Source: Euglena gracilis (lineage: Eukaryota). From it: a stretch of DNA of 64,000 bases. The stretch is from assembly GCA_039621445.1 (NCBI GenBank), contig CP154954.1, positions 27,516,123 through 27,580,122 of the forward strand, in the 5' to 3' direction. Both the position numbers and the translations under genes were made by a program. The notes below the pieces were generated by a model. It did not search any database. It saw nothing but the letters and a program-made list of their open reading frames with translations, and was not told the origin of the DNA. Shown here in pieces: positions 505 to 64,000 of the stretch (its first letter is position 1; every line of letters begins with the position of its first letter).

Positions 505-3500
505 AGGGGGGTTCGCCCAGTTCCTCGCCGCGGTGTGGGAGCAACAGCAGCTGGTGGCCCAGGGCCGCAGCCCGGCAGTCCTCCTGGCCCCCGGCCACGC
601 CATTGCCTGGTCGGCGGGCCAAAGTGGCAGCACACCGGGAGAACGCACCAAATTCTGGCCGACACACCTTCAGGCCGCCCACGCATTGGGCTCCATTTGT
701 GTGTGGCAGTTGGTTGGTGGAATGCATTCAAACAAAAACGACAGGTGTCTCCCAGCATGCCCTCCCCAACGTCACATCCACCCGAAGCAGGCTGAATGAA
801 TTCACGCTTTCTCCTCGCCACAGTAATTGGCTTTCCCCCTGACGCACGGGTGCCATCGGAAAACCGCTTTGACATTTTGGTTCATGCAGCAGTTGCCTGT
901 GGTCTGAACTCAATCAGGAATTCTGTCAGGCAATTGTATGTCTGCGGAACGCTGCACACAATCGGGTTATGGACCGAGCAGTCTTTTCCCCATTCCTCTT
1001 CATTTCAACACATTTCTTCTTTTCAATTTTTGTGCAGTTGGTGTAATCCACCTACACACAGGGTTCGATATAAGGAGGGCGTACATGGTTTAGGTGGGGG
1101 GTGTCCCCCCCCACCCCCCCCTCCTGGCCTGGAGGGGGGGGCCTGGATCCCCGCCCCCCCCCCACTTGCCAGGGGGGTCCGGACCGGCCCCGGGGGGGGG
1201 GGGGGGTACCCGGGACCCCCCCAAAAAGGGTCAATTTTTTCCTCCGGCGCTTCGCGCCGGAGTTTTTGGTACTTTCTGCCATTGACCTGCTGAAAAACAT
1301 ATGTGCTGCTTGCGCTTTGATTTCGCTGGATGTCAAATTTTTGGCCCGGCGCTTTGCGCCGGGCCGAAAATCGGTCACCCGGACCGCGCCACTGTTTAGG
1401 TGGGGGGGGGGTGTCCCCCCCCTCCTGGCCCGCAGGGGGGGGGGGGTGTCCGGACCCCCCCACCTGTCCTTATATCGAACCCTGCCTCCACATCATTTGG
1501 TCCTCCGGGGCTAACTTACAGCAAGCCTCCACGCCCAGATTTTTTCCACAAGGGAAATTTTTTGGGGGGTGCATTTTTTCCTTTCCTCCAAAGTGAATGA
1601 GCGAATTCTGGGATGAGCACCCGCCATTGCCGTTAGTCGAAATTTGCGAGTGGAAATTAGTGGTCCAAGTTTGCCAGGGGAGGGGGCTGCTAGTTGGGCA
1701 AGATAATGGAGTTTTTTCCCCAGTTGGGGGGACCCCGAGACCCCGCAGGGAGGAGGGGGGGGGTCTAGCTAGCGGCTTTTTTCTTGTGGCCGGTGAAATG
1801 GCTACGTAGTGGACCCCCTGGGGTCTTTGAGCAAAGCCTGATGAGCACAAAAGCTGCCTGCACGGCCAGGTTCGCCCCCCAAATGCGTTACAGTGCAGTC
1901 TTTGTTGCTTTTTTGTTTGTCTTTGTGCCCTCCGACTCTTTGTTCCCTGACACGCACGCCTCGGCCCAGTGAGACACGGGAACGCCGCCCGTTCCCAAAG
2001 GACCGCTCGCCGCCGCGCTGCTTCGCCCTGCTGCAGCCCGCGGTGGCCCGGGTTGGCCGGTTCGACCCCAACTTCTACCCGGCATCCCAGGAGGGCCCCG
2101 GCCAGACCGTGTTTGCCCCCTGCCCCCCCCCCCCAACCTTCCCCGGGCCATGAGCACAGCGCCCCCCGCCCCGGCCCCCCCAGAAGGTCGCCCGCGGCCT
2201 GGGGCGGACTACTTGGTGCGCCTCAGCCGCGCCGGGCTGTGGCTGCGGACGGTCCCCGCCGTCCGGCTCCTCCCCGACGAGGAGGGCCCCAGCTGGTCGT
2301 TGGCCACCCCCGGTGTGTCCCCCCCCCAGCGGGGCTGCGTGAGGCGGCGTCATTGGAAGGTTGCTCAAGAATCTGTTCCCCTGCCCACACCCCCCGATGG
2401 CCCCACAAATGCCAGGCTGATGAGCTTTCATATAGCTTGCTTGGCTTTCGAAGAGCACAGGTTTGCACGACACATCTGAAGCGGAACGAAGCCATTGGTG
2501 ACCAAAGAAGGGGTTTCCGCGCATGAGGGGTGGGCGAAGCGGCCGTTCAGTGTCGATGGCAAGGGTGCCTCAGCCCTTTCCAGGCCAAACAAGGAGGGAG
2601 AAATAAATGGCAGCCCGAAACTACTGCCCCCCCCCCCCGGGGGCCCAGTACTTAATCCGGGGGGGGGGTAGTCAGACCCCCCCCGCCTGAAAGAAGGTGG
2701 ACCCCCCCGGGGTAAAGAAGAGGGACCCCCCCCCTCCTGCCCCGTTCCTCCGGGCAGGGGTTTTCCGTTTCCCCCCGCCCCCCCCCCACCCTGCCCTGTC
2801 TGTCCTGTCCGTCTGTCGGTCTTTTTTCCATCCGTCTGTCTGCCCCCCTGCTGCTCGCCCCGCCGGTTTCCCCCCGCGCACGACCCCGCGGTTGCCCGTG
2901 GGCAGGGCTGGATAGAGGTAAAGGGATAGAGGTAGAGGTAGAGGTGGAGGCCAGATAGGGGTGGAGGACTTTGACCTCTACCTCTCCCTCTATCCAGCCC
3001 TGCAGTGGGGCCATCCACCCGCGCGCGTCGCCGCCGCCCAGCGACCCCAGAAGAAAGGCGTGGGGCGACCAACACTAACGGATTCCCCCGGCCCCCCCGC
3101 GCGACAGCAGACAGGGGAGGGTAAAAGAAGATGGACCGGGGGGTTAACGAAGATGACCCCCCCCCCCCAGATTAAGTTCTGGGCCCCCCCAGGGGGGCCC
3201 AGTAGTTTCGGGCTGCCAAATAAATAAGCTCTGGCCGTGATTTTCTTTGATCAGGAGCTGACCCCCGAACATGGAATGGGAGGGCCATGGCATCGGCTGA
3301 GCAGTGGCATCGTTGCACTCCTCCCTCAAACCCTGCTGGAAACATTTCAAGGCGGGTTGCCTGCCCGAAAGAGGCGGCGTCCAGGGCGGACTCCGACCAC
3401 CACCACCAGTTTGCCTTCTTTGTCCCCGGGCACCCCCTTCCTCTCCTCAGCGGCGCGGCAGCACGCGGCGCGGCAGCAAGGGGGGCGGCCGTACTTCGCC

Positions 3501-11933: not shown

Positions 11934-13837
11934 ATGCAGGCGTACTCCTGTCAGCCTTGCAACGTTGCCTTCGCCACGGAGCAAGGTGTGGCATTGTGTA
12001 CTTCTTCCCAATAGCCCGTTTAGAGAAATGCAGTCTGAGATCGCTCTTGGACAGGATGGACCCGACACCTTGCCTCCGGCCAACGCCATTTCGAGACCTC
12101 GGTTCACCCTGATGGCTCTGGCTTGTGGGAGCTCAAAACTCTGGGTCCCATAAAATTTGGAATCTTGCTGACGAACTGGCCTACTTCACAAAAGAGAAAC
12201 ACCAAATGTGTTTTTCTCCCACCAAATGTGCAGGTCAGTGTTCAAGCATCTACAAACCCTCCGGGCGAGATTGGAGAGGTGAAAATTGACACGTCGTTTT
12301 GTGGATCACAAGGATGTTTGACAGGCAGCGTAGGAAGCTGTGCACAAAGTGTTTTTTCAATTTAATACACAGTTTACCCATGCACCATGGCGTTCACTCA
12401 TGCACAATGGCATTTGGAAAGGGATGGGGTAAGGCCAACGTGCACACAAAAGGGTATGCGGGACAAAATGGGTGATGTGTTTGCCCATGGGCAACAGCAT
12501 ATAACCCTGGAAGCCTTGCCTTGCATGCGCAAAGGGGTTTTGTTTGGGGGAGTGGGGTGGGGGTGGGGGCCGCCCCCCCGCCACCAAAACAACTGGCAAC
12601 GTTCCTCCCCTGCTGCAAACATCATGAACTATTTTGAACTGTTATGCCGTCCCCTGTTTTGTGCCCCAGACATCAGTCCCAGCTCAATCCAAGCAGCACT
12701 CCACTGCACTCCTCATGCAAAATGGCCTGCCACAAAATGGATTCCCTGAGGTTCCGGGGAGCGTCCCCGGAGCCTGGTTCCTTGCGGCCGCAGGGAGCCT
12801 CCCCGCAGATCCCCGGTGCCTCCTCCGGTCACCACCTCGGCAGGATTCCATTTCCGCGGTGGACCTTGACACTGTCCCCGGCCTTTTGCATTGTGCCCAC
12901 CCCACCTGCCATCACCTCTACCCCAGGCTGGCAGCAGCACCTCCTCAGCGCGCAGCACCTGGCCGTGGTCCAGGCCCTGCTGGGTGTGCCCCTCCCCCCC
13001 CCCAGCCATTTTCCGGTGCAGCTGGCGGGGCCGCCGGTTTCCACTGCTTGCCACTGGTCTGCGGCCTGGTCTGGCCTGCCAGTGGTTGTCCCTCTCCACT
13101 CCCCTGGGCACAGGGCAGTCCAGAAGGGACGGGAGGGGTCTTCCTCTTAAGGACCCTACATAAAAAGTGTTCAAAAAATTCAAAAAATGAGCCTTTTTGG
13201 ATTTATTCTCACCGAAAAATCAGGGAGTTTTTGACCGATTTCGGCCTGGTATCCGGCCTTTACCAGCCCGCAAAACCGAAAAATTTCTGGGCCCTCTTCA
13301 GTATCGAGGTAGGAGGGGGGGGGGGTCCGACCCCCCCCCCCCCTCACCCCCCGTGTTGCCCCCTCTCCCCCTGTGTTGGGAGGGGTCCGGACCCCCCTCA
13401 AGGCTTCCCATCCATCCCTGGTCCCTGTGGATTTCTCATTGAACGTGCTGGGACGGGCCGTGTTTTTTTTTTTTTTTTTTTTTTTTTTGTTTTTTTTTTT
13501 TTTTTTCCCTTTCCTCGTGAAGGATCGCCCTGGCATCCGCAACCTGTCCCTTCTCCGCAGGGGGGAGCGTCGCCCCCATCTCGAGCATGCTGTACAGCGC
13601 CGGGGCGGCCAGGGGGCTTCCGGCGCCTCAAGGCCAGTGCTCTGGCAGAGATGGCCCGACCGGAAGAGGCGGCCCCCTGGGAAATGACAGATGCGTCCCA
13701 GTACCAGTTGCAGCAACAGCAGCAGCAGCAACTTCAGCAGATTCAGCTGCACCAGCAGCAGCAAGAGTTGTTGCATCAGCAGAGGTGCACGCACGTGCGG
13801 GCGCGGGCGTGTGTGTGCGTTGTGTGTGTGTGGGTAT

Positions 13838-13879
<42 letters not shown>

Positions 13880-16800
13880 GTATGTGTGTTGTGTGTGTGC
13901 ACGCGCGGACGTGTGTGCTTGGGTGATCTGTGGAAGGGTTGCCCAGTGATGGGTTGGTATGTTGGTTTTTGTTTGGGCCCTCCTGCAACCATTTGATATG
14001 TTTTCTTTGCAATTGATTCACAGAGGTTATACCTGTTGGAGGAGCTGGTTTGCACACAGCGTTAAGAAAAGTGGATTGCAGGGTGATGGTTCCCGCTGTT
14101 TGCCCGTCCTTCACAGCCTGCTGTCCCAGGCGGCCTCGTCATCGGTCTTGTCCCCCAATCAGTTTCAGGTGCTCTCCATCAAAGAATGGGAAAGTTCCAG
14201 ACATGTGGTGTTGAGGTCACAGCACCAGCGACTTCCACAGCCCTCCAAATCCCCGCTGGAATACACTTGCGGTGCTCAATCCACTTGGAGGTTCGGCAAG
14301 CCAGTTACCTTGCCCCTCCTCAAATGCGACCTTGAGTCTATTTTGGGTCAATTGCTGAAAATCTCTCCGGGGGATCTGTATTGGAATTTTTGGGGGGTCA
14401 GTGAAGAGTTTGCGTGCCTTTAGAATGGTTTTCATGAAAAATGCAGTACCCACATGCCATTTGCCGATGCTTGGGGAAGTAGCTTTTCTCAGCCATATGG
14501 GCGAAACGACCCATGCCTTATCATGGCGAACTTGGAAGGGTGTAGCTCAAGAAAATTTTGCCCCACCCCCAGGGTCCAGTCAGCCAGCAGCCTTTTTCCA
14601 GCTAGCAGCTTTTTTCCAGCTGGGGACCCCCCCCATCAACGAGTTTTATTCATTTCCAGCCTTCTTTCCGGCCTTCCCTTCGGGCGGCCGGACGGTAACG
14701 GGTTTTTCGCTTTCAGGTGTTGAAAAATGGGCCAGAAATGGGCGAAAATGGGCCGGAAAAGGGCTGGTCAAGGCAAATTGTGGGTCAAAGGTCGATTTTT
14801 TTTTGCATAATTGGCAGTTTTTTGGGCATTTTTTTTGTGATTTCGATTTTTGGCACCTAGTTCAACGCTGGGTTGGGCCCAGCTCCAGCCCAGGACCCCT
14901 GGGGGGGGGGGGGCAGCCTTTTCCAGCCAGCCCACAGTTTCCAACCCCTGAGCTGGACCCCCGGGGGTAAAAAAAAAAGCCCTGCTTGGAAGACAACCCA
15001 TTTTCTGCTCAGGAAAGGTTTTGACTGGCACATCCATCTCTGTTCCACTATTCTGTGTGATACTTTTTTGCAATTTTTGAGATCTTTGGTCGGATGACAA
15101 AACCTTGCTCAGAAGCAGGGTTCAATGGGGATTTTCAGATATTATTATCAAAACACGTGCTGCACATGTGTGTTTTTCGAGGGTCCGTGTTGCATCCCCC
15201 TCTGCATAATGTCATTGCACAAGGACCCAACAAACAGAAAAGTCAGTGAAGGAGAGTCAGTATGGATTTTATAGGAGCCAGAAATCTGAAGCAGACCTTT
15301 TGGAACCATTTTTCGGAAGCCATGCTGTACGATTCCCGTGCAAACTTTTGGGGTGGATTTAAGTTCACTGGCCGAGTTGCACAGGGCAGAGATAAGCCCC
15401 CCCCCCGGTAATACATATCACCCACCAGAAACTCATCATCATTGATTGTGGGAACACGTGACGAGGTCTTTCGCCTTGGGATGAGAATGGGTCATTCTGG
15501 CTGTTCATCCCCGTGTGGATGGAGGGGAGTCGGGTGTCCTTGGCAACGTTTTCATGCGACTCAGACCCAGGACTGGCTTTCTCTTTGTTTCGTTCTCTCC
15601 CCTCCCAGGCTCTGCAGTTGGCACAGTTGGCTTCGAACAGCCTGAACGCTCAGGATCCGATGCGGTCCACTGTGCAGCAAATGCAGAAGTTGCAGGTGTG
15701 TGCTCCAGCAGCCTTTTTTTTTTTTACGCCAAGAGCGGTGTGTCCTGTTGGCAATGCGTGTGTGTGTTGTGTTGTGTTGTGTTGTGTTGTGTTGTGTCGT
15801 GTCGTGTCGTGTCGTGTCGTGTTGTGTTGTGTTGTGTTGTGTTGTGTTGTGTTGTGTTGTGTTGTGTTGTGTTGTGTTGTGTTGTGTTGTGTTGTGTTGT
15901 GTTGTGTTGTGTTGTGTTGTGTTGTGTTGTGTGTGTGTGTTGTGTTGTGTGGGTGTGTGTGTGTGCTGTGTGTGGGTGTGTGTTGTGTGTCTCCGCACGC
16001 GCCATGTGGGTGGGTGGGTGGGTGGGTGGGTGGGTGGGTGGGTGTGGTTGTGTGTGTGGACCAGGGGGGGGGGAAAACGCAAATGCGTTTTTTTTGCGGT
16101 TTTTTTGCGTTTTTCAATTTTCGGAAAATTTGCGTTTTTTGCGTTTTTTTGCGTTTTTTTGCGTTTTTCAATTTTCGGAAAATTTGCGTTTTTTGCATTT
16201 TTTTGCGTTTTTTTGCGTTTTTTTTTGCAATTTTTTTGCAATTTTTTTTGCGTTTTTTATTTTTACATTTTTTTTTGATTTTTGCGCCTCCAAATTATTG
16301 TATGCATCGCCTTGCTCACATTTCATATGCTTTTATTTACCACCATGCACCAGCTATGCTATTTTAGACGTGCGCTGTGGTAGTGAGTGAACTAATTGTT
16401 TGTGTCCTCCACACAGCCGGGTCTTTGATACTTTCTTCCCAATGCTGTGTGGAGGAATGAGCTACTTATGAGGGTTGTTCTTTGCTTTAATGCAGGGACA
16501 CCATGGAATCTGAACATGAAGTTGATGCTCTGGCGTTGGCAACTGCAGATGGAGCTTCTGAAGTTGAAATGGACGTGGATGATCAAGATGCAAATGAAAG
16601 CCATAACAAGAAACGCAAATTCAATTATGGAGCCAAGACCAGTGATTTCTTTCGTTGGTGACATCAGGGTGAGTTGTGCTTGAAACAGGTTTCAACCCGT
16701 GCCAAAAAGGATGCAATTCTCATTTGACGGCATGCATACATGAACTCAACTCCTTCATTTGTCAAGCGCGCGTGGCTGCCAACCTCCCCAGGTGCTTTAA

Positions 16801-19800
16801 AAAAAATTTCTGGTCAAGACAACACCGGCTTCGAGGGTCAAGCAATTCCCTTTGGGCACTTTTGAAGTCCGTGGTGATGCGATGTGGTGTTGCGCTTGTC
16901 AGAAGCCTGTTGACCATGACCAGGGGTAACTAGTGAAAAAATTGAAATTTGTGGTTTTTCAGAGACTTGTTCCCCTGCTGGCACACGGAAATGCTCTGCA
17001 CAGCAGCATTTGCAGAAGAAGTTACACAAGGACAATTTAAGAAGGTCTTCCAGAACGATCACCACAGTGGCCACGACAGTGGATGTGTCGCAACCATAGA
17101 TTCATTTAACCCCTGTGTGACCCCTCCCCCCGGGACATCCTGGGGGGGGGGTTTCGGGAGTGGGTGGGTGGGTTGGGGCCTCAGGAAATCCACCCCAGGG
17201 GGGGTCCACCGCCCCAAAACCCACCCAAAATCAAGCCAAATCCGGCCAAACACCCAAAAATTATCTCTCCGGGGGGTCACTGAGTGAATCTATGGTCGCA
17301 ACCAGCATCTCAAGTATCAACATCCACCGCATCATATGTTGTGCCAATTGCACCCGAGCGTGCGAAGGTGTGGCTTTCACCATTGAACTTAACAACCACA
17401 TATTTGTTTGGTTTGATCAGGTTCAAAGGGATCTCAAAGAGATGATGTCTGTGCAAGAGCACATCCAAGATGCAAGGGATGTCCTTTGTGCTGCATTCCT
17501 CGCTGCAGGTTTGTGAAAAAATCATTATCTTGTGCCTTTCTTGACACTGCTTAGGCATCCCATTGGAGAAGATTGAGCACCCAAGCATTCAAGGGTTCCT
17601 GCACAAAACATCAAAATTCTTCGGCTGCTACCCAAAAGGAGCGAAGGAGATGCATGCATGTGTCGATCGAGTTTACAAGGTAAGTTGTTTTGTCGTGAGT
17701 GCCCATGACATGCATGCTTGTGTTGCTCGAGTTTGTAACGTAAGTCGCTTTGTCATGATGGCTCAAGGCTTTCTTGTTGTTGGAGTGCACATCTTTTTCC
17801 TCGCTTGGGTGGTTGATGTCTATGTTTTCGCAGAGACATTTCAAAGAAATACGGCGACTCCTCTACGAGCACGACGTTGCTATCAGCTTTGACGAGACCA
17901 CGGACAGTCGCGGCAGATCCGTTCTCCACATAGTGGTGTTCAGTGCGGAGAAGACCCTCCTCACAGACGTCGTGTACCTGCAATGTTTCGGACCATACAT
18001 CTCTCTAAGGTTTTGCGAACCCCCCCCCCGGGGGGGGGGCTGCTGCAGCCAGCCCCGATTTGGGCCCAGCCCAGCCGCAGCAGCACCCCCCCCTGGGGGG
18101 GGGTGCTGCTAGCCCAGCTAGCCAGCCCCTTTTTGGGGGTCCAGCCCAAAATTTTTCGGCGCAAAGCGCCGAAAAATTTTGAAGAAATGTGTTCAAAAAG
18201 TGGCCAAAAATGGGGTTTGGGGGGCGTTTGGGGCATTTTTGGGGGGGGGTTCAGATGCATCATTTTTTCAAAACTGTGTTTTGCAGGTCATTTTTGGGCA
18301 TTTTTCCGATTTCAGTCCAACCCAAATTTCTAGCTAGCCCAAATTTCTAGCCCTAGCCCAGCAACCACCCCCCCCGGGGTCCTTAAAGAGATGTATGTTT
18401 CGGACCTAACGACGGTGCGGAACACCGAGAGGTTGCAAGGGTGGTCAACGAGAGCCTTGCAAAAACAGGCATTTTGCCTGAGAGACTTAAGTTTGTTGTA
18501 ATCGACGAGGGCAGTGTGATTTGCATACCGTCCCTTCCGTTGTTCGCTTTTTTGTTAACGATTTGGCAATATAGATCTTTCTTGTAATAAAAAAATGGTT
18601 GTATGCATTTCAGTGATGGTATGTGTGCGGTGGCTGCTTTCGAGAATGTTCTAACCACTTTGTTCCCCTCTGTACAATTACACCTCCAGGATAGCGCTTT
18701 GCTCTAAGCACAATCCTGCCGTTGTGTGTGTTGCCCATAAGCTGCATGGTGTGGGCCAGGAAGTCTGCAAATTTGGGTTTGATGACGTTGATTTTCTTTT
18801 CCAGTTTCCAAGTGTTCTACATCCAAAGAAACATGCTTCCACACGTCGCAGGTGGTTTCAAACTCTAAAGGAATTGAACAAGGACCTCTCTTTACCACCA
18901 AAAGTTGGAACTACACGATGGAATTCTTGGAGGGATGCTTCGGATTGGTACTGCTTTCATTTGACTGTTGTGAAAAAGTTCCTTGTTGCTGAATGTGAGC
19001 GAAACCCTTGGAAAGGAAAAGAAGGCACAATTCCACCTGTGAGGGAAAGAATCCTGAAGCTGCTTTCAGAAAGGTTCACCGGCACAGCCATTCGCATTGC
19101 TTTTTTGGCCGATCATTTGGATATGGTGGGTCACGTTCTGAACGATTTTCAAGGGAAGTCACCAGGGGAGGTTGCGTTTGTTTATGACAAGGTGATGGAG
19201 CTGAGGTCTTATTTGCAGGATTTATCGATGGACAGTTGCATGTTTACACCACGGGTTGAGAGCTTGTTTCAGAAATTGAAGGACCAAAAACCCATGCGTT
19301 CCATGCTGAGTCAAGCTGCAACTAGGGGTTACAAGTACCTTGATGTCGTGATGCGTCGGCACCCTAAACAATGGCAATTTTACAAGGAGGTTCGTGTGCT
19401 CAATCCAAGTAATTTGCCATCACTCCTTCCTTCGGCTTCAGAATATCCCACTTTAGGACTTCCGCTCACAAGGATTTTGCAGCCGAGTGGGGAAAATATT
19501 GTCGCGTGGAACGCATCTATCCCTCCAACCCCGAAGAGCTGATGGCGTTTTGGTCAAGACACCAAGGTGTTTTGGCCGAAACTGCCAAGCTGCTTCTAAG
19601 TGTTCCAGTCACCTCTGCTGATGTGGATGCCATGCTTTTCTTTATTTTGGTGCAAATTAGTTTGCATTATTGCTTAATGGTCAAATTCCGACTCATCATT
19701 TGCCGCGACGGGAATCATCGATCAAAATCATTTGCTTCTGTTCCACTTTTGGTGTCGCCTTTCAAAGACTGGCATGCACCCACGCTCCTTCAGTCTGGCT

Positions 19801-22043
19801 GGTGTCATTGACACCAAACTCCGCCATTCTCTCCCCGATGATTCCCGTCGTGCCACGTGCATGTTGATGTTCAATGGTGACATTGAAGGACGATTCTAGT
19901 CACCCGAACTCAGCGTGTCACACTCCCCAAATGCGATTGCATTTCTGCTCTTTGTGCCTCGAAGCTCTGGTGAGGCCCCTTTGACACAAAAGACGTGTTA
20001 TTTCATTACCTTCGGCCTTCATGTTACCACAAAGGCAAGGGAATCCTTTTCATCCCAATTTGCGTTTTTTTGCGTTTTTTTGCGTTTTTTTGCGTTTTTT
20101 TTGCGTCGCGTTTTTTGAGGTGCCCTGTTGCGTTTCCCCTCCCCCCCTGGTGTGGGCATGGTCCGGCACCATCTGCTGCCTGCCGACCGGCGCCGGAACG
20201 TCAGTGTTCAAACAGCAGCATTTGCAAGGAAGGGTGGGCAACCGACATGTGAATTACTGGTTGCCATGGTGTCCGTTGATGACATGCTCCGTGGGCACAG
20301 CTCGCCCCCCAAAAGACGAATGAGGCTATGCTCGATGTCCCACTATCGGGATCCGTTTCAGAAACATTTTTCTTTTGTCAATCCACTTTTTTCGTGAAGT
20401 GATAAATATTTTGTGGCCACGTTTCCAAACAACAGCCAAAGGAGAGCTGCTCTTGCTTAAATGAAAGCCATCAAGAAATGGACTTCAGATGTCATCAAGG
20501 CTATAGCATTACTAAACAGCCAAATTATAAAACTAATTTCCGTTATTGAATAATGTGTTGTTTAAAGGAATTATTTGGGTCTAGCACTGTGGAAACCGCC
20601 ACCCCCAATTGCCCTTCCCCGCTACCCCACAGCAAGCCGCACAGGCGCAACAGAGGGCGGCGCGGCTCCTGGACCTCCGGCAGCAGGTGTGTGTGTCGTG
20701 AGCACCGCGGTGGCCCACTGCATCGTATGCCACGCCGATGAGCCCGTGGCCACGTGAGCCCAACCATGGGCCTCTGGCCGTGGGTGTCACTGCTCTTCCG
20801 GCGCAGGGGCCCCTGAGTGGCGGCGGCCTGGACCAGCTCAGCCTTCTGCAGGTTGTTGTGTGTGCGTGCGTGTGTTGTGTTGTGTTATGTTGTGTTGTGT
20901 GTGTGTGTGTGTGTGTGTGTGGTGTTGTGTTGTGTGTGTGTGTGTGTGGGTGTGGGTGTGCGTGCGTGTGTGTGTGTGTGTGTGTGTGTGCATGTGTGTG
21001 GGTGGGTGGGTGGGTGGGTGTGGCGCCCTGACACGCCCACGTTGCTCTGCGATGCCTTGTGGACGGGGCGGGAGGGGTTTCATCATGGATCAGGGTGGGT
21101 CTAGACCAGTTTTTTGGGGGGGATTTGAACGGAGCTCAAATGATCTATTTGTGCTTTCGAACTGATGGGACGGAAGGTGCCTCATTTTGGTCCCAAGTGC
21201 AGGGGTATTTTTTTTGCTCGTTCGAGACTCGATTTTTGTGTATCGGTCGGCATTGCCCCCTCAGTTGGCTTGGATGGGTGCCGTTAAAAATATTCAGGTT
21301 CATTATTTGTTTGTTTGATTTGGCGGCGCCGCAGGGCTTCCCGGGTGGCCTCGGACTGGGCCAGGACAGCATCCTGGGCAGTGCGCCAGGCAGCAGTCTC
21401 AGCCTGCTGAGCCAGCCGGTGTGTGCACCGTGTGCATGTGTGCGGTGCGGTGCGGTGTTAGTGTGGAGCATTTCAATCACCTTGCGGTTGCAGACATCTG
21501 GGCAAACCGCTGAATGCCCTCCAATTGCATTATGAGACGGTTGACTTTTATTTGTCGGGACAAAAGGTTGCTCACCGAGGCCGGTGGATAAATTGAGGCC
21601 CACAAGGGACGGGGTTATTTTTTTTGTTTTGGACCGCTCCTTAGGGACCCCCCTTGGGCCTGAGGGCCGCCGCTTCTGCCGTGTCAAAATTACAAAGTCG
21701 AAAGCACATTTTTTTTTGATGATTTGGGTGGATGGACAATCCAAGGATGCCAGAAAGCATCACCCCTTAAATTGATCCGGTTTTGCCAACATAAGTTATA
21801 TATACATAACATACATACATACATACATACATACATACATACATACATACATACGTACGTACGTACATACATACATACATACATACATACATACATACAT
21901 ACATACATACATACATGCATACATACATACATACATACATACATACATACATACATACATACATACATACATACATACATACATACATACATACATACAT
22001 ACATACATACATACATACATACATACATACATACATACATACA

Positions 22044-22076
<33 letters not shown>

Positions 22077-25000
22077 TTATATATTTGGCCATTTTTCTCT
22101 GTGGGTTTTTCATCGAATGCGTTGGGATGGGACCACCATAAGTTGAACCAAGATAGGGTTCAACAGCAATGAAGATACATTTTTTTGGGGGGAAATGTAG
22201 TATGTAGTGCTGTAATTTGTGATTTTGACGTGGCTTTGACATTTAATATCAATAATGTATTCCAAATGATAAAAAAGTGCGCCACCCCCTGTGAAGGGCG
22301 CCCCCCCCCACAAATTTAAACCCCCAGGAGGTTTGGTATTCCCACCCAAATATAAGCCCCCCCCAAAACCCCGAAGTGGAAGTGCCACAAGTGGAAGTGC
22401 CATACTGCACACCGTGGCAGTCGGGGCACGAGCACACCGATTGGAGTATGATCGGGTTGCTGCAGTGGGTGCCCCAGTCTCCTGCAATGCCTAAACCCCC
22501 ATTTAAGTGCGTGGTGTCCAAATTGTACGCAGTCCCCAAATAAGTGTCACACCCCCGAGGGCCCGAGGGCACAGTCCAATATGCACATCCCGTGCACTCA
22601 ATTGGGGGGTTCACCCGACGCTGGGTCGCCACCGAGGGCCGAGCCAGGGGAGGTCGTGGTTGAGGGTTTCGAGGCATTGCCCCCCCTGCACAACAAATGC
22701 AATGTATGCCACCCGCAGCAGCCCCGCCCAGTGCTGCTGCCCAGGGGGGGTACCCGCCTTTAACTGCACCTGTCTATTTTGGACAAAAAAATTCACTCTT
22801 TTTGGGAAAGTCGGAGGTACAAAACGGAATTTGGGATAAAATTGGTATTTGAATGTAGTTGAAGTTTATGGGCCTCTCAGAAACGTTTGCTTTCTCCAAT
22901 AATACCCCCCCCCTGTGAGGGTCTTGAAATCCTGCCCAAGTATGCAAGTCTAAAGCAGGGGGGTTTCTTTATACCTGGGGGTGGTTTGCATGGGTTTGTG
23001 AACCGGCCCTCGTCATAGCTCCTTTTGGCTGGATGGACTGCACCCCCGTTTTTCTGACTGGTGGTGGCGGGGGGGGGGAGGGCGGCGTCGCTGTTCTGTT
23101 CTGTTCTCATGTCCGTCCCCCGCAGTTGTTCAGCGTCGGGGCCGGGGCGGCCTCCCCGGGGCGGCGCTCGGCGGGCGGGCGGCTGGGCGACCGGCAGCCC
23201 GTGTCGAAGTTCACGGTGGGCGCCCCCCCCCCCTCCGTTGCTGTCGCGGCAGCAACCGTGCGCCCCTTGCGTCCCACCCTCACCCCCGCCGGCATTCCAA
23301 CAGCGACGTACCCGTCCTCCGCTTTTGAGGGCAATACTTCGTCCTCCAAGAGATGGTTTACAGGCTGGTTTCGCAATTTCAGGTTGTACTGGAAAGTGAG
23401 CAGAGTTGGGCATTCCTTGCAATGCTTCAACCAACACGACAGGATAATACCTTTTTTGAAACTGTGAACGGTTCAGATGCAGGGTGGCACGCAGTGCTGC
23501 CACGGTTGGGGAATGGTTCTTTCATGAGAGCATGGACCCTGCAGGGTGGTGTGCAGGGGGGGGGGGGGTGGAGGGGGCACCTGAAGGATTTCTTCTCATC
23601 TGTCCTATCTGTCCTGGGGATCCAGGGACACCTCCCCCCGACCTGAATGCCCCCAGCGTGGGGTCATGGATGGGGAGCCTGAGGCCCCCCTGCCTCGTCC
23701 GTCCGCTTCGAGGGCGGCCATCGCCCCCCCCCCCCCCCGCAGGTGGTGAAGAAGCCCGACTCCGGCCGTTCACAGCCTTCGCGGCAGTTCCCCAGCAACC
23801 GGGACCTCGGTGTGCCCCCCCCCCAACTGGCCAGCGGTGGGGAAGATGTCTGCGCCAAAGAGTCCCGTTTTGTGCCGCGTTGCGCCGTACCCCCGGCGCT
23901 GCGTCCCGGGGTTCGGCCCGTGTGCCCCGGGTGGCGGCTGTGGCCACTACTGTCAGAGACCGGGCGGTGGGAGTCGGGCCGGCCACTCTGCCGTGTCCCA
24001 GGGCCGCCCGACGAGCCGGGCTGCTGCCGGAACTGCGGCGAGAAGGGCCACGGGCTGCGGGACTGCCCCCGGGAGCTGTCCTGCGCCAACTGCGGGCGTG
24101 CGCAGCCCCCTGTTGGCTGTCAGGGGGGACGTTGGGGAACGCAGGGCCCAAATAAAACAACCACAGGAATCCCCTCCAAATCATACGCCAAAGTTTATTA
24201 TTTGGGCTTCCGAGGACAGCACCTGAGGGCAGGGCTGAACAGGAATTTTGGAAACCCTGCGGGTGGGGGATCGACCCTGGCTTGTTTTTAACTCGGAAGA
24301 TTCGGGGGGGATGGGTCCGGACCGGACCCCCCAGCCCCGGTCTCGGCTCAGTCAGCCCAGCCGGGGTGGGTATTTTCCGAAGCTCTGGATTTTTTTTGGG
24401 GAAATGTTTTCACACCGCCCGATTTTTTGGGGGGACCCACCCGCTAAATCACCACACCCGGAGGAGGAATTTCTTCCAACACTGAACGAAAAATTGAATT
24501 AATTTTTTTTAAAAAAAAATACCTGAAATTTGGGAACCAGGAAGGGATGGTTGAACCAGATGGTCGACCATCTCTGTTTTAAGCCCCCAGGGCCCAGCTT
24601 TAAGCCCCACCCACCCAGCCTGGTGTGCCCCCGCAGGGGGGGGGGCTCAATGGGAATCCCCGAAACTCTATGGGTGGTCCGGTGGGGGCGTCCGCCCACA
24701 CCCCCACCCATCTCGATGATTGATTCATTCGTTAAGTGACCATCAGTAATTAATCAGTGAAGAATTAGTTCCATGCAGAAATGCACCAACAGCACGCGTT
24801 TGCTTGACGGCCACGGGTGGCTGGAAACAAAGGGCATACCCACCATGTGTGCCGGGATGGTGGTATGTCGTTCCCACATCCCGTCCATACTCTTTTTTTG
24901 AAGAAACAGTGTCAATGTGCATGCGTCATTCCTGACTGATAGCAACTGGTTTCTTTTAATTGGGTTTCTGAATATTGGCCTGGGGAGTTGTATTTGGGTT

Positions 25001-30341: not shown

Positions 30342-30808
30342 CAGGGGTTTTCTTAAGCTGGAGGGTACCCCTCGGGGGGGGGTCCAGCCAGCCAGCAGCT
30401 CAAATCCAGCCAGCAGCCCAAATTCGGGCTGGGAGCCCGGGTCGAGTGAAATAAAGTCGGGTCCAGCCCGCCCGGAGGCCGGGCCAGCCGGCCGCAGGCC
30501 GGCCAGCAAACTGGGCTGCCCAGCTCACCTATGCCTGCATTTTTTCCCCTCACCACAGCTTCCCAATCACAGCCCCCCAGCCTTGACCTAGCTCCATCCA
30601 TCAAAATGTCGAAAATGGCAAAAATGCTTTAGAAAATTTTGGTTTTCATCGACCCAGCCCAGCCCAGCCCAGCCCCAACCCCAGACCCCCCCCTCCCCCC
30701 CCCCTATATCCCCGGGGGGGTGGTCCAGCCAGCAGCTCATTTCCAGCCAGCAGCCTTTTTGCCAGCCGGAGACTGGACCCCCCCGGGGGGTCTTTAAGAA
30801 AACCCCTT
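30342..30808. mobile_element. hAT-type MITE just downstream of the zinc-finger gene stop
   Basis: TIR CAGGGGTTTTCTTAA/TTAAGAAAACCCCTT; perfect 8-bp TSD ctttggac; internal CAGCCAGCAGC motifs shared with the 17994 element. Confidence 0.85.
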
Positions 30809-38900: not shown

Positions 38901-41900
38901 GAGAGCCACTTATAGGTGTAAAATAGCAAAGAGCTTGTCTACAGACTTGCCCCTTTGCTAGAGTTGCTAGAGATGGCTAGAGAGTTACTGGAATTTGCAT
39001 GTTTTTGTTTATTCTTTCTACTCTATGAGTGCATTCGGTTTGCCATCGTTTAGTAGGATTATTGTGGGGGTACTGCACTTTTTCTTTTTGGGAGCTTGAC
39101 AGCATTTGGCATTCAAGTTTCATGTGTGTCCACTATGGACACAATTTTAGAGGAGGTCTTGTTTTTACCTGACATCATTGTACCTCAAGCCAGTGCGGCA
39201 TTGAGAGAGCTTCTCATCGAACATCAAGCCGGATCCTCGAACCTGCGCGCTCTTGATGGCATCCGCCTTCCGCAACAACTTCAGATCGCGCTTCGACAAG
39301 TGTGGTCCAAGGTCACCACCAGCCAACGTTTGGCGCTGCTTGGTCCATACAATTTTGTTCTTCTTCTATCGGTTTATTTTCTTTTATTATTTATTTTTGT
39401 TTCCCTTTTTGTTATCTTTTAAAGGACATAATCCCCGTATCATCTCTGTTTCATGAAAGTGTGGTTGTTGCAGAGCCAGTGAATTTATCCCAACATACGG
39501 TTCATCAAATATTGATCAGGTCTCTTTCGGGGGGGGGCACACATATACCCGGACTGCCCATTGTCTTTTTTTTTTAATTATTCATTGTGGAAGTGAGGAT
39601 AGTTAGCACAGTTGTGCAGTGGAATCAATGCAAAGGCTGAATGTTGGAACTCTTATGGTTTCAAGACATACCGATTAAGCATGGGATTCAAAACAAAATG
39701 GCATGTTATGGACCCCTGCAGGAATGGAGCACGGCATGTACGCAACTGGCCCCAGTGGGGGTGTCCTCTCAAGACCAACAGGCCGTGCTCAAGTCCCTCC
39801 AAGGCTATCTGGCACAATTATCTCATTCCACCAATTTCATCAACCTGGTGTACTCCATTTTATTTGCGGCTCCGTCGTTCAGATTTCTTCGGATTCTTCT
39901 GTTAAAAATTTATCACTTGCAAGTTTTATTATATGGCATCCAAAAACAAAACCCAAGAAAGGTATTTTGCGGTTTTGCTTTTGGGAAGGGCAGGATACAA
40001 TAATTGAGTGTGTAAAGTAAAGTAGTCGAGGTGGTGCAGGTTGAGCTTTTAAGAAAATATTTTTCGTTTTTTACCGTTAATAGGCTGTTTGAAAAAGAAA
40101 ATATTTTTCGTGTTTTACCGTTAATAGGCTGTTTGAATCCTTTCCTTTGCCACCTTACAAAGGTTTGTCGGTCCAGAGTGGGTGTAGTTTAGGGTCAAGG
40201 GCAGTGTGATGATCATTTATTTGGTTTTTTTTTGTATATTGGTTTTCTTTTGTTTGTTTCTTTTTTTTTTTCTATTGGGTTGTTGGTTTTGTTTTTTTGT
40301 TCCTGTGGCAACCTGGTTCCCAACATGGGACCTCGGTGGGCTGCACTCTGTTGTTGATCTTCCGACGCTTCGGGCTGCTTTACTGGGCCTGGTCAGAGGG
40401 ATTTCCTCAAAAACCCAATTAAAAGCCTTCCAAAGGCTTGTGGAGGAGCATCTTAGGAAGCAACTTCCCTCTACGTCTGCAGACCACAGCGTTCAGGCTT
40501 TATGTTAGGTCAATTTTAAGTTTCTGTTTGTTTGTTGTGTTTTCCCCCTCCCCCCCCATTTACGTTGTTCTTATTTTCTATTGTTTTCGTTGGAGGATAA
40601 AAGGAATGAATGGGTCATATTCTTATGTGCTCATTCGCAATTTTTTGTGGTTATTGTTGGTTTTTTTTTGTTTCATTTTGATTCTTGTTTTCCCCCTCCT
40701 AATTTATTATAATGGAGCCTGCTGAAGACCTGGATTGGTTTCTGCAAGGTGAGCCCACAACCCCTGTCCCATCTGCCCCATCCTCCTCGACTCTCACGGG
40801 AGCTACAGAGGGTCCTCGTGTTGCTCCCACCGAAGGACAGGAGCGTCCCAAGCCCTCATGGACCGTCAGACCGCTGGAAGAGCAGCAGGGCTCCGTGGTC
40901 CGTGTTTTGAATTTATCTCGTCAGTTCAGTCCCATGGCGTACACAGAAGCTTTGAGGGAGGTTTTGGATTCTATGGATGTGGTCACACCAATGAACGTTG
41001 ATCGTGGTTTTTGTCACGTCACGATTCCATGTTATAAATATCGTGAGTTATTTCGGACTTCGGACATGGCGGAAGTGAAGTTGGCTTCTGGGTTATCTTT
41101 CAGAATCCGTGGGCGCACTCCAGAAGGGGAACCTTACATCGATTTTCGGAGTTCCGCCGCGAAAAGACCCAGGATCGAGGCCGGATCCCGTCCAATTCTC
41201 TCGCCCACTTCGTCAACACCAGTACTAGCACGTGTTGGTGTGCATCCCATCCCGAGTCCCCCTCCGACTCCGCCGTCATTCTCACGTTCCACGGTTGACT
41301 CTTTCGCGAGTTCGCCTTTCGCCAAATTACCAGCCTCTTTGGATGATATCATGCCGGTTTTCACACATTATGCTCCTGATGTTGGTCGTTTCTACAATTG
41401 GTTGTGGATCCCTCCTCTTCCTCCGGCAGCCTACATCCCCCAGGATTTCCTTCGTCTTTTTGGCCCCGCCATAATCAGCACAAATAATCAGGTCAAAGTT
41501 GATTTCCTCAAAGAAATAGTGCAGAGATTGGATTGTGTGGACAACCATGGTTTCTATTTTGAAAAGACATGCGATGCCAAGGGATGTTGGAATTGCGGGT
41601 CTGTTTTTTTCGGCTGATAGTTTGTGTCCGGGCTGTTTGAGTATTTTGTTTTTCTATATTCCGTGCGACACACAAACAACATCCTTAATTGGGTGATGTG
41701 GATGGGTCGGATGCTTTGAAATTCATCCTCAAAGGGCTGCAACAGATCTCAGCCACTTGGTCCACCATGTTGTCGTCGGTGGCGAGCAAATGGGCTAAAG
41801 TTCTCCTTAGCAGGCCTCGCCTTCTGTCGACGGGTGGGGTCTACGTGTCCCCTCCTATCATCAATGATGATGCCTTTTTGGTGTTCTTTTCGATTCCCAA

Positions 41901-47697: not shown

Positions 47698-47729
<32 letters not shown>

Positions 47730-50700
47730 CCTCCTCCACCTCCTCCTCCTCCGGGTGACGGCTGGGCTGGGCCACCGGTGGCGGCACGATGACGGGGCTG
47801 GCCCCCTCGGGCTGACTGGCGGGTGGGGTCAGCTCTGGGGTCTCCCGGCCGGGGGCGGTCATCTCCACGTCACCTTCCTCTGGGCTGTCCACCGCCTCGG
47901 TCTCCTCCCGTCGGGCCTTGCGGGCTGGGGGCCTGCTGGGCTTCTTCTCCGGCTCCTTCTTCTGGCGCTTCTTCTTCCGGTCACCCCCACCCTTCTGGCG
48001 CTCCTCCAGCTTCTGCAGGCGGCGCTGCTCCTGCCGAATCTTGGTCTGGCGGCGCCGCTCCTCGGCCTCCTTGGCCCGTCGCCCCGCCTCCTCAGCGGCC
48101 AGGCGGAGCTTGTCCTGGAGGGCGGCGTTCTCCAGGGGGACCCAGAGGGCGTCCCCCCCTTCCAGGGCGACCAGCAGGAGGGGCAGCATGGTGGAGGCGA
48201 CGGGCCGGGGCAGGGTCACCGTGTTGGCCACGGTCTGGGTGACGTCTTCCAGGCTACTGGCCGAGTCCTCCACCACCACCAGCACCTCGGGGGCCCGCTG
48301 CCGCCGCCACTGCCGGTTCCACATCGGCTCCTCCGGCAGGATGCCGCTGGGCCGCAGCAGTCGGCTGGCCGCCCGGTGCCTCGCCAGCGGCGCCTCGTGC
48401 TCCTCCGCCACCACCCGCTGCGCCGCGCGCGGGCAGGCGTGCTGCCGCAGCGCCCGGTACACCGCCCAGGCGTCCTTGAGCAGCAGCTCGATCCGCGGCC
48501 GCCGCGGCTCCCAGGCCAGCTCCTCCAGCAGCGCCGCGCCGCCCTCCGTCCGCAGCGGCACCCGGGTGTGGGCCACCTGTACCACCAGGGTCTGCAGCGG
48601 GTGGCCGCGCTGCACCACCACCGCCACGAACTCCTCGTAGGTGGCGGCGAAGTGGGCCTTCACCAGCTGGCCCAGCAGCTTCCCGGACTCCGCGGCCAGG
48701 GCGGTCTCCTCGCTTTAGCCCTCGTAGCCACGGCGACGGGAGTGGGTGCTGCTGGCCTGGGAGGACTCCATTCAGTCCACCCCAGGTCTGGCGACACACC
48801 TTACACCAACCCACTATTCCGTCAACGTCACACCGGCCACTCTCACCATTCAGAATGCATCGCACAAACACACATTTACACACTTCACATCCACACCTCT
48901 GTAAGTCATTTCTTCTCTTCAGAGACGTTTTGATGCGCGCAATTGTGCAAGTCAACAAGGAAACAGACACGCACCAATTCACAGCTATACCCTGCCTGGT
49001 CATCCGCCATGTACGTTAGCTCCAGACAGGGAACAGCAATCAAGTATCACCATAAGGCCTTAACCACCCTGCACTTCACGCACACACTCTCAAATTGGTT
49101 GTCAGCATGACATCTCAGAAGTTACAACATCTCCAGCATTCATACAAATCAGACCCCCTTTCGCTCCACTAAGTAACCGATAACGTCCAAAGTGTTTCAT
49201 TGGTCACACAACACCCACTGGGTAGCTTCGCAACAAAAAGCAACAAATTGTGCGCGCAATTGCGCAAGTAAAACAGGAACACTTTTCATCACTGACACAA
49301 ATCTGGAGTGTCACAACCCCCCTCTCAGCAACTCAATCCATAATTGAGGACACAATCGTTTGATGCGCGCAATTGCGCAAGTGTGCAATGCGCCATAAGT
49401 AAAATTCTGTTGAACACCAATTAGAAGGTTCCAATTCACCGGGCATTTCTTCACCCTTGTTCAAGACAGGCGGTGTCACACCCCTCTTCGGGCACACTCA
49501 ATTCCATCGTACTTCGCAATTGGTGGCACCCAACACACCCGCGCAACAATTCTCAAATGCATTGAGGGTGTCCAGTTTCATCGCCAGCCAAACCATGGAT
49601 ATCCACAGGACACATTTGCACCGTCCAAAACTCAAAAACTGTGCGCCGCCAGATCTGGCCAGGTGCTTGCCGCGGGCAGCTGTGGGGTAGAAGTGGGTGT
49701 GGGTGGGTGCCCCGCGGGCAGCGTGAAAGAAAGCAGCTGCGGAGAGGGGGAGGTACAGAATTTCACGCGTCCGTCCGGTCGCGAAGTCCAGTTAGGACTT
49801 TGTATTTGAAGGGGTTCGAATTGCCCAGCCCTAACGAGTTCCGGGCGCGATCACAAAAATTTTTTCCGGCGGACAGGGTACAGGGTCCCAGGGGTTACAA
49901 AAAAATGGTACATTTGCGCAATTGCGCAAATGTCAAAGGAAAAACCCTTAAGTGCGAATTCGGCCGCCTAAGTCCCTCCAAACGAAACCAGCACGCACAG
50001 ACGATGAGCACCTGTGCTCGCCGTCTGTGCGCTCATCGGCTGTGCGCGCCTGTTAGATTTTTTTTGTTCATCAACACATCTCATTTACATGTGCCGTGAT
50101 TCAGATGGTTGGGACCTCCTGCCATCCCAGCCAGGCTGTATTTTAGTCGGGTGTCGACCCCACCCCCGGGGGGGGGGTGCCTGCCTGACCAGGCACTCCA
50201 AGGCACTCCAAATCCGAACCCCCGGGGGGGGGGGTCGGACACACGGTCAAAAGTGCCCTAGCACAGACCCGCCGCCGAAGTCGCCAGGGAGCCAAAAATG
50301 GCCTATTTTCAAAGGAATGTGCCTGGGTGCTGGCCGAAATCCGACCCCCTCGCAGGGGGGGGGGTAGTGCCTGCCTGGGCAGGCACTCATAGGCACGCTG
50401 GACCCCCCCCTCCCCCCAGGGTTGGAAAAATACGGCCTGATCCCGGCAGGCAGGTGGGACCCCCAACAGGCTGAATTTTGAGGTCCCCCAGGGGGGGTAG
50501 GCATTCCAAAGCACCCAGATCTGCACCTGGGAGGGGGGGGTTGGGCTTATGGCCAGAAGTGACTGGGCACACAGTCAAGGCAATTCCAGAAGAGTCCATT
50601 TCTGGCACTTTTTTGGGCCACAACCAGGCAGGCCCCGACCCCACCCCAGGGGGAGAGGTGCAGAAGGGTGTCTGCCTGTCCCGGCACTCCCGGGCACGCG

Positions 50701-54186: not shown

Positions 54187-54189
<3 letters not shown>

Positions 54190-54687
54190 GGGGGGGGGGA
54201 AAAATGCGTTTCGCATTTTTTCGCATTTTTTTGCATTTTTGGTGCATTTTTTCAAATTTTTAAAAAATGCGCAGTTTTGCGCATTTTTCGCATTTTTTGC
54301 GCATTTTTTCGTTTTTTTCAGCACATTTTTTGCTTTTTGGCACATTTTTCGTGATTTTCCAAAATTTTCGCATTTTTGACCATTTTTGCAATTTTTTGCA
54401 AAATTTTGAAATTTTTGACTTTTGTTGAATCGTACTTTTTTTTTATTATTCTACTTATTTTCTTCAACTTTTTTGCCTTTTTTGCATGTTTTTGGGTTAT
54501 TTTTGCATTTTCGTGATTTTTGCGCATTTTTTTCTCGGATTTTGCACATTTTTGCGCATTTTTTTCCAAAAATGCGCATTTTTTGCGCATATTTTTTTGC
54601 GCATTTTTGCGCATTTTTTGCGCATTTTTGCGCATTTTTGCGCATTTTTTTCCGAGGCCGGGCGAGCGCATTCCCCCCCCCCCCCTG
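54187..54687. mobile_element. Non-autonomous hAT-like element inserted in a (TA)n/(GA)n microsatellite field (54028-54985)
   Basis: TIR CAGGGGG..AAAAATGCG / CGCATTCCC..CCTG and TTTTTGCGCA repeats resembling the ends of 16062-20149. A similar left end is at ~11334. Confidence 0.75.
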
Positions 54688-63900: not shown

Positions 63901-64000
63901 GCCTCCAAAGTCAGGGGACCCGTTGGTTTCATGATCGTCGTGGTTTAATTGTAAGAGAAACATGCAGCCGGAAGGTTGGTTGCAAGAAATGAGCAGATTT
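54988..64000. repeat. 213-bp tandem satellite, ~42 highly similar copies, running off the window end
   Basis: CCGAATGGGTG at 55110, 55323, and onward at ~213-bp spacing; one copy has a ~37-bp deletion (~60813), one a 76-bp insert (61759). Confidence 0.97.

Follow-up and report, generated by a model that had tools for sequence, protein, structure and literature searches.

The origin of the non-conventional introns of euglenids, and the odd spacing of 3 nucleotides (nt) at one end and 5 nt at the other that goes with them, call for an explanation. An origin from transposable elements of the miniature inverted-repeat kind (MITEs) has been suggested since 2014, with no transposon superfamily named; the proposal is made in PMC3935182 and repeated in PMC12501133, and a review (PMC11282704) notes junction repeats that resemble target site duplications (TSDs). 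In this study we consider a window of 64,000 nt from Euglena gracilis (contig CP154954.1, positions 27,516,123 to 27,580,122; all positions below are those of the window) and, within it, a 404-nt MITE at 17994-18397. An initial annotation of this DNA, which rightly allowed that a MITE origin had already been suggested in general terms (PMC3935182), had proposed that MITEs of the hAT superfamily are ready-made introns whose 3-nt and 5-nt spacers add up to the 8-bp TSD, and it had offered this MITE as its example. We conclude that 17994-18397 is probably an ordinary nested hAT-type MITE, lying in a dead transposon that is itself enclosed by a conventional host intron. The general proposal is compatible with this explanation of the locus and is weighed separately.

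The splicing code of euglenid non-conventional introns

A recent study (PMC12501133) gives the code of these introns as 5'-N3-CDG...CH'G-N5-6|R-exon. The 3-nt and 5-nt spacers around CAG and CTG were tested genetically; splicing is lost when a single letter of CAG or CTG is substituted, the donor spacer is held strictly to 3 nt, and the 3' spacer tolerates 5-6 nt. Synthetic introns of 50 bp were spliced with only the CAG and CTG triplets, the spacers, a 12-bp complementary stretch and a purine at the start of the exon. The code accounts for 61.2% of the annotated non-conventional introns and leaves 38.8% outside it. Additionally, non-conventional introns make up 71.8% of the introns of E. agilis, and direct repeats are found at the junctions of 84.4% of the introns of that species (PMC12501133). 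The geometry on which the initial annotation relied, with CAG preceded by 3 nt and CTG followed by 5 nt, agrees with this code.

The preferences at the junctions are mirrored. Purines are favored both at intron +1 (51/55) and at exon +1 (55/55), and pyrimidines at exon -1 and at intron -1 (49/55 each); C is favored at the third exon position, and G/C stands at +7/-9 in 31/55 (PMC4770533). Eight-nucleotide direct repeats are found at gapC intron 4, which is strain-specific and was gained recently; the authors read these repeats as a product of double-strand-break repair (PMC4770533).

Anatomy and abundance of the focal MITE

The focal MITE and its target site consist of the following features.

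17994..18397, plus strand: focal MITE, 404 nt, CAT..ATG ends, terminal inverted repeats (TIRs) matching at 16/17 positions
17986..17993, no strand assigned: left TSD copy, TTTCGGAC
18398..18405, no strand assigned: right TSD copy, TTTCGGAC

The 17-nt TIR reads CATACATCTCT[C/T]TAAGG with 16/17 positions matching, and the two TSD copies are identical (8/8). RNA reads that derive from other copies of the MITE have loose ends exactly at 17993/17994 and at 18397, with unrelated sequence beyond, so the termini are fixed independently of the repeats. The interior is made of G- and C-homopolymer palindromes and has no obvious coding sequence. Summed over the contigs of DNA run X2, the depth on the element amounts to 355,000-1,000,000 versus 107-150 in the unique stretch 20258-21615, a measure that is not a strict copy number and that lies thousands-fold above the unique flank. 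The family is clearly very abundant. A small element with TIRs, a TSD and a high copy number has the properties of a MITE, and the initial annotation was right to describe 17994-18397 as one with an 8-bp TSD. A scan of metagenomes with the 17-nt TIR gave 29 loci, and a BLAST search of these with the MITE gave no more than three matches, 21-25 nt long and placed at the seed; they are read as chance hits. Rfam at the gathering threshold gave 0 matches over the whole window.

The exact direct repeat around the MITE is 12 nt long (17983-17994 and 18395-18406, spacing 412), longer than the 8-bp TSD because the element's own ends lengthen it. All 412-nt deletions that start at 17983 to 17995 therefore give the identical product, and 17991-18402, the intron named by the initial annotation, is one among 13 equivalent registers. 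The arithmetic behind that intron is correct, as the element with 3 nt on one side and 5 nt on the other amounts to the element and a single copy of the 8-bp TSD.

The interrupted gene encodes a transposase

The MITE splits an open frame, the parts of which are listed below.

17825..17992, plus strand: transposase piece left of the MITE (..DETTDSRG..VYLQCFG), 47% identity to residues 316-368 of database protein P0001, E 1e-14
18408..18515, plus strand: transposase piece right of the MITE (NDGAEHREVA..VIDEGS), 61% identity to residues 370-405 of P0001, E 1e-13
18655..19811, plus strand: remainder of the gene for the transposase, with a frameshift around 19463 in this copy

Removal of 412 nt in silico gives ..VYLQCFG-P-NDGAEHREVA.. 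in an open transposase frame. A single residue of P0001 lies between the alignments of the left flank (316-368) and the right flank (370-405), and it corresponds to the codon split by the insertion. This exact colinearity indicates that the insertion was exact and that the uninterrupted form is ancestral. The restoration of VYLQCFGPNDG claimed earlier is thus borne out.

The open reading frame (ORF) at 18655-19542 (295 residues) matches P0001, a longer protein of 667 residues, with E 1.5e-46 and 42% identity. Direct domain matches are weak, with DUF659 on the left piece at 16.4 bits, below the Pfam cut-off, and Dimer_Tnp_hAT on the ORF 19413-19811 at 12.1 bits versus a cut-off of 21.4. A search with P0001 against 1.84 billion representatives gave 469 relatives at E<=1e-3, and in ten long relatives chosen for scanning from 150 listed, Dimer_Tnp_hAT is above the Pfam cut-off (21.4) in nine, with 41-51 bits. 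By this transitive homology the interrupted gene is predicted to be a hAT transposase gene. A PDB sequence search with P0001 gave matches to the N-terminal zinc finger only and no transposase structure.

Behind 19463 other copies have four extra letters that are absent from the window; they are carried by all of the depth in run X15 and by about one third of the depth in X2. From frame arithmetic, these four letters would join the ORF 18655-19542 to the ORF 19413-19811.

A putative 97-nt intron at 18519-18615 in the transposase gene is suggested solely by homology to P0001. A 5-nt repeat, GTGAT, stands on both sides of it; the putative intron offers no GT-AG register and is retained in an X15 contig.

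The surrounding hAT element

The transposase gene belongs to a larger element that carries both nested MITEs.

16062..20149, plus strand: defective hAT element of autonomous size, 4,088 nt, CAG..CTG ends, TIR 11/14, TSD 7/8
17095..17294, plus strand: second nested MITE, 200 nt, CAT..ATG ends, TIR 12/14, TSD GTCGCAAC 8/8

hAT transposons are marked by an 8-bp TSD, by short TIRs starting with CAG and by the target preference nTnnnnAn. The large element has the 8-bp TSD (GTGTGGAC/GTGTGGGC, 7/8), and its ends, CAGGGGG..CCCCCTG, begin with CAG and match at 11/14 positions. Four of the six local TSDs combine a T as second letter with an A as seventh. Together with the match of the ORF to P0001 and the Dimer_Tnp_hAT domain in nine of its ten relatives, these features support the assignment of the local elements to the hAT type, as the initial annotation had it. 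The depth of X2 is raised over the hAT element and drops to around 130 at 20258 and beyond. This copy has three defects, namely the nested MITE 17095-17294, the focal MITE and the loss of four letters behind 19463.

We propose that a hAT-type MITE transposed into the transposase frame of 16062-20149 and duplicated the 8-bp target TTTCGGAC. The recipient copy is dead: besides the focal MITE it has a further nested one, and its frame is shifted near 19463.

Several DNA contigs of X2 bear on the history of this element. An empty site of the MITE 17095-17294 appears as a joint from 17086 to 17295, which skips 208 nt (200 + 8), at a depth similar to that of unique sequence. Joints from 16214 to 20097 and from 16106 to 20096 correspond to internal-deletion derivatives of the hAT element, and the depth in the terminal part 16184-16377 is very high, as expected if the element gives birth to MITEs.

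The host introns around the element

Mapping of RNA and DNA reads covered 15990-21790, and two host introns with RNA joints frame the discussion.

15696..20632, plus strand: conventional GT..AG host intron, 4,937 nt, enclosing the whole hAT element, supported by RNA joints
21423..23129, plus strand: RNA-supported non-conventional host intron, 1,707 nt, position sliding by 3 nt

Eleven reads of RNA run X21 and one X15 contig that continue from 20630 onward begin with 30 letters identical to 15663-15692. The GT..AG register of the intron 15696-20632 is read from the sequence, and CAG is shared by both ends. The joint of a second conventional intron, 20687-20806, is supported by nine reads of X21, three reads of X24 and one X15 contig, and was not seen in the DNA run X2. 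The presence of this joint in X15 and not in X2 indicates that X15 behaves as RNA. A further intron at 20851-21334 is probably conventional, judging from its letters. As the hAT element lies inside a GT-AG host intron, ordinary splicing removes the whole region from the host mRNA.

The non-conventional intron was recognized from loose ends at 21422 that match 23130-23159 exactly (6 reads in X21, 5 in X24 and 1 contig in X15). None of its four registers has GT..AG, CAG at +4..+6 or CTG at -8..-6. Its junction repeat is 3 nt only, with no 8-nt repeat, and it holds an (ATAC)n array. Euglena gracilis thus does have non-conventional introns, and the one verified here is without the CAG/CTG motif.

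These results separate the parts of the initial annotation. The anatomy of the element, the restored frame and the arithmetic stand. The statement that host non-conventional introns in this DNA carry CAG at +4..+6 and CTG at -8..-6 fails for 21423-23129 in any register, and the host introns 15696-20632 and 20687-20806 are conventional on the RNA evidence. The insertion had also been placed, by implication, in a host exon, and it sits in a broken transposon within the conventional intron 15696-20632.

A Pfam search of ten large ORFs in the window identified a long interspersed nuclear element (LINE) endonuclease alone, and a ranking of the window's ORFs by composition recovered only transposon proteins.

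Is the focal MITE removed as an intron of its own?

In place of a simple nested insertion, the focal MITE could be excised from transposase RNA as the non-conventional intron 17991-18402, restoring the frame. This is very improbable in our judgment. In its favor, excision restores the colinearity with P0001, the first exon base 18403 would be G, a purine, and in the centroid fold of the MITE the TIRs are paired, with 3 nt and 5 nt left as overhangs. The triplets at the two ends are CAT and ATG, which fall outside the CDG/CH'G of the published code.

The RNA record consists of raw runs X21 and X24, of which about 5-6% each was read, and of the contigs of X15. At this sampling there is no RNA depth at 17348-17929, upstream of the MITE, in X21 or X24, and no raw read in either run bridges the MITE. 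The sole molecule without it is record 2 of X15 (1,174 nt, depth 9.85), which covers 17185-17982 and then 18395-18770 and lacks exactly the 412 nt. This contig from an RNA run speaks for excision. The same record retains the putative intron 18519-18615, and at 17482, 17516 and 18571 it has the letters seen at 100% in the DNA run X2. Additionally, the neighboring X15 contig has the four extra letters at 19463, at 100%. The retained putative intron, the three letters of the X2 type and the four extra letters point to a different copy or allele of the hAT element as the probable source of the contig, and away from a spliced product.

Twenty RNA reads run from the ends of the MITE into unrelated flanks (4 and 6 in X21, 6 and 4 in X24), which shows that other copies of the family occur unspliced in RNA. 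Unspliced copies are expected in pre-mRNA, and these reads prove little. The copy in the window is in any case frameshifted. Most likely, the focal MITE is not processed as its own intron, and the example given in the initial annotation is not supported, as its CAT..ATG ends are outside the published code and the RNA runs give no evidence of removal.

Several observations weigh against the reading of the focal MITE as an unspliced nested insertion. X2 shows 7 fixed differences from the window in the unique stretch 20258-21528, so the three shared letters could be strain differences and not marks of a paralogue. If the DNA of X2 were without the form that skips the 412 nt, a spliced origin of the X15 contig would become more plausible. 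The RNA test is itself weak, with a hAT copy that is barely expressed and raw runs read to 5-6%. Splicing of a CAT..ATG element could also occur, as natural introns outside the code exist (38.8%; PMC12501133) and other complementary triplets are found in 22 of 55 natural non-conventional introns (PMC4770533); compensatory changes at triplet positions 1 and 3 are absent from the tests described in the sections of PMC12501133 considered here. We nevertheless regard the nested insertion as probable, and the focal copy itself, as an ordinary insertion, has no special importance.

Other elements of the window and the fit to the code

Four further elements with 8-bp target sites were found.

1059..1484, plus strand: MITE, 426 nt, CAGG..CCTG ends, TIR 14/14, TSD CCTACACA/CCTCCACA 7/8
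30342..30808, plus strand: MITE, 467 nt, CAG..CTT ends, TIR 13/14, TSD CTTTGGAC 8/8
50132..50439, plus strand: MITE, 308 nt, CAGG..CCTG ends, TIR 12/14, TSD ATCCCAGC/ATCCCGGC 7/8
2609-3217: element of 609 nt, GG..CC ends, perfect 12-nt TIR GGCAGCCCGAAA, TSD AAATAAAT 8/8

The element 50132-50439 is a sixth, beyond the five of the initial annotation. That annotation had most local transposons ending CAG..CTG or CAT..ATG with 8-bp TSDs; the elements at 1059, 16062, 17095 and 30342 are real, although 30342 ends CAG..CTT and 2609-3217 ends GG..CC. When the +4/-8 rule is applied to the internal CAG and CTG of 2609-3217, removal would not be scarless.

The TSD counts were compared with chance. Pairs of CAG..CTG with a stem of at least 7/9 (n=230) have a TSD of at least 7/8 in 3 cases, with about 0.09 expected from the binomial and 1 in an offset-9 control. 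Pairs of CAT..ATG (n=113) have a TSD of 8/8 in 2 cases, with about 0.002 expected and 0 in the control. The counts at both kinds of pair exceed chance.

Two other scans were rejected as evidence. A TIR-only scan was dominated by chance pairs (1,580 with 12/14 or better), and a scan for 7/8 TSDs with loose TIRs gave 10 at the true offset versus 3-9 at shifted offsets. When the other elements were excised scarlessly in silico, the continuity of the ORFs gave nothing convincing in this G/C-rich DNA. A 501-nt element at 54187-54687 has CAGGGGGGGG ends as in the hAT element, lies within a (TA)n tract and has a TSD of 6/8.

Three elements, 1059-1484, 16062-20149 and 50132-50439, carry on paper the CDG and CH'G triplets of the code. 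When 1056-1489 is folded, CAG:CTG closes the stem and the unpaired ends measure 3 nt (5') and 5 nt (3'), which is partly so by construction. All four local CAG-type elements start with CAGG. Across the six local TSDs there is a purine at position 6 in 6/6, a C at position 8 in 5/6 and a pyrimidine at position 5 in 3/6. On paper, a CAG..CTG MITE with its TSD would have everything that has been published as sufficient for splicing, provided that TSD position 6 is a purine.

A possible hAT-MITE origin of the 3/5 spacing

An insertion of a CAG..CTG element with an 8-bp duplication would give the layout of the code, 3 nt followed by CAG...CTG and 5 nt and then a purine, and its removal would be scarless. 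From this one may build the general proposal that euglenid non-conventional introns are mostly fossil hAT-type MITEs, that 3 + 5 is the 8-bp TSD and that exonic insertions are scarless and tolerated. We put this forward tentatively, as something that falls somewhat short of an even chance. In a stronger form, the 3/5 ruler of euglenid splicing may be tuned to the 8-bp duplication of hAT MITEs with CAGG..CCTG ends, with the non-conventional introns as their fossils, a suggestion we hold with less than half confidence. It might follow, on a similarly tentative footing, that exonic insertions whose sixth target base is a purine are erased exactly and that the mirrored Y|R of the junctions represents the two copies of the target site.

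The published spacers of 3 and 5 nt and the splicing of minimal synthetic 50-bp introns (PMC12501133) argue for the proposal, as do the eight-nucleotide repeats at the recently gained gapC intron 4 (PMC4770533) and the junction repeats in 84.4% of E. agilis introns (PMC12501133). In the window, the purine at position 6 of all six TSDs, the C at position 8 of five, the CAGG start of every CAG-type element and the extreme abundance of the local MITE family point the same way. On the other side, no MITE was seen spliced in this window, and the RNA-verified intron 21423-23129 has a 3-nt repeat only and neither CAG nor CTG. The sample of TSDs is small (n=6), with a pyrimidine at position 5 in just 3/6. 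The published 3' spacer accepts 5-6 nt (PMC12501133), and the survey of 649,158 E. agilis junctions reports no 8-nt signal in the part of its text considered here. Additionally, 8-bp TSDs are not exclusive to hAT, and the element 2609-3217, which has an 8-bp TSD and GG..CC ends, does not fit.

The sum 3 + 5 = 8 could also be a coincidence, with junction repeats that come from double-strand-break repair (PMC4770533) or from constraints of the splicing machinery and with MITEs that are unrelated to introns. The authors of PMC4770533 take the eight-nucleotide repeat as a mark of such repair, TSDs come in few lengths, so agreement in length by itself is not unusual, and the verified local non-conventional intron is without MITE features. 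A coincidence has to contend with a joint match to the local hAT-type elements, which covers the CAG(G)/(C)CTG termini, the total of 8, the mirrored Y|R and the C at exon +3 (PMC4770533). We consider this explanation unlikely. In summary, the anatomy, the hAT kinship, the host intron and the on-paper geometry are results of the analysis, and the splicing of any MITE is hypothetical.

If the hAT-MITE proposal is true, it explains a frequent and harmless gain of introns as well as the mirrored junction preferences, and the question of intron origin becomes a simple genome-wide count on existing data. A full-text literature search, in which few subscription journals were covered, gave no paper that ties hAT or an 8-bp duplication to the 3 + 5 spacers, and the parts of PMC3935182, PMC4770533, PMC12501133 and PMC11282704 considered here do not tie the hAT superfamily or an 8-bp duplication to them. 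The general hypothesis is coherent, cheaply testable and apparently unpublished.

Other features of the window

A LINE-like retroelement at 40703-46619 (plus strand) has ORFs of 304, 957 and 724 residues, and the 957-residue ORF has an Exo_endo_phos endonuclease domain (E 8e-10). A tandem array of a 56-nt unit (8.4 copies, 46911-47380) adjoins the LINE and a 409-residue minus-strand ORF at 47488-48714. A satellite with a 213-nt unit (about 42 copies, 91% matches) occupies 54991-64000, up to the end of the window, and its GC skew stays constantly positive. The leaf-litter metatranscriptome run X20 contains a small share (0.10) of the words of 13001-23000.

Comparison with known systems

The locus can be compared with three described systems. 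The first is hAT transposons and MITEs of the Ac/Ds type. These share with the local elements the 8-bp TSD, the short TIRs that start with CAG and the high-copy deletion derivatives, and the hAT dimerization domain is found in the relatives of the window's transposase. The local family differs in being G/C-rich and not AT-rich, and the focal family in its CAT..ATG ends. Going by a title, Ds is reportedly a de novo intron in maize.

Introners are MITE-like transposons that give rise to spliceosomal introns. In common with the elements proposed here they have TIRs and TSDs, and the duplicated target is partly removed so that the exon is restored (PMC11282704). They differ in their use of the spliceosome and of GT/GC-AG sites and in their short TSDs, which are 3 nt in Micromonas (PMC11282704). 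In Euglena, by comparison, the proposed pathway would be the non-spliceosomal euglenid one, acting on an 8-bp TSD.

The third system is that of the euglenid non-conventional introns themselves. The shared features are the closure of the stem by C-A-x/x-T-G with overhangs of 3 nt (5') and 5 nt (3') (PMC12501133, PMC3935182, PMC4770533), the purine at the start of the downstream exon and the direct repeats at the junctions. The focal MITE differs from these introns in having CAT..ATG in place of CDG..CH'G, in lying outside a host exon and in that the RNA runs gave no sign of its removal.

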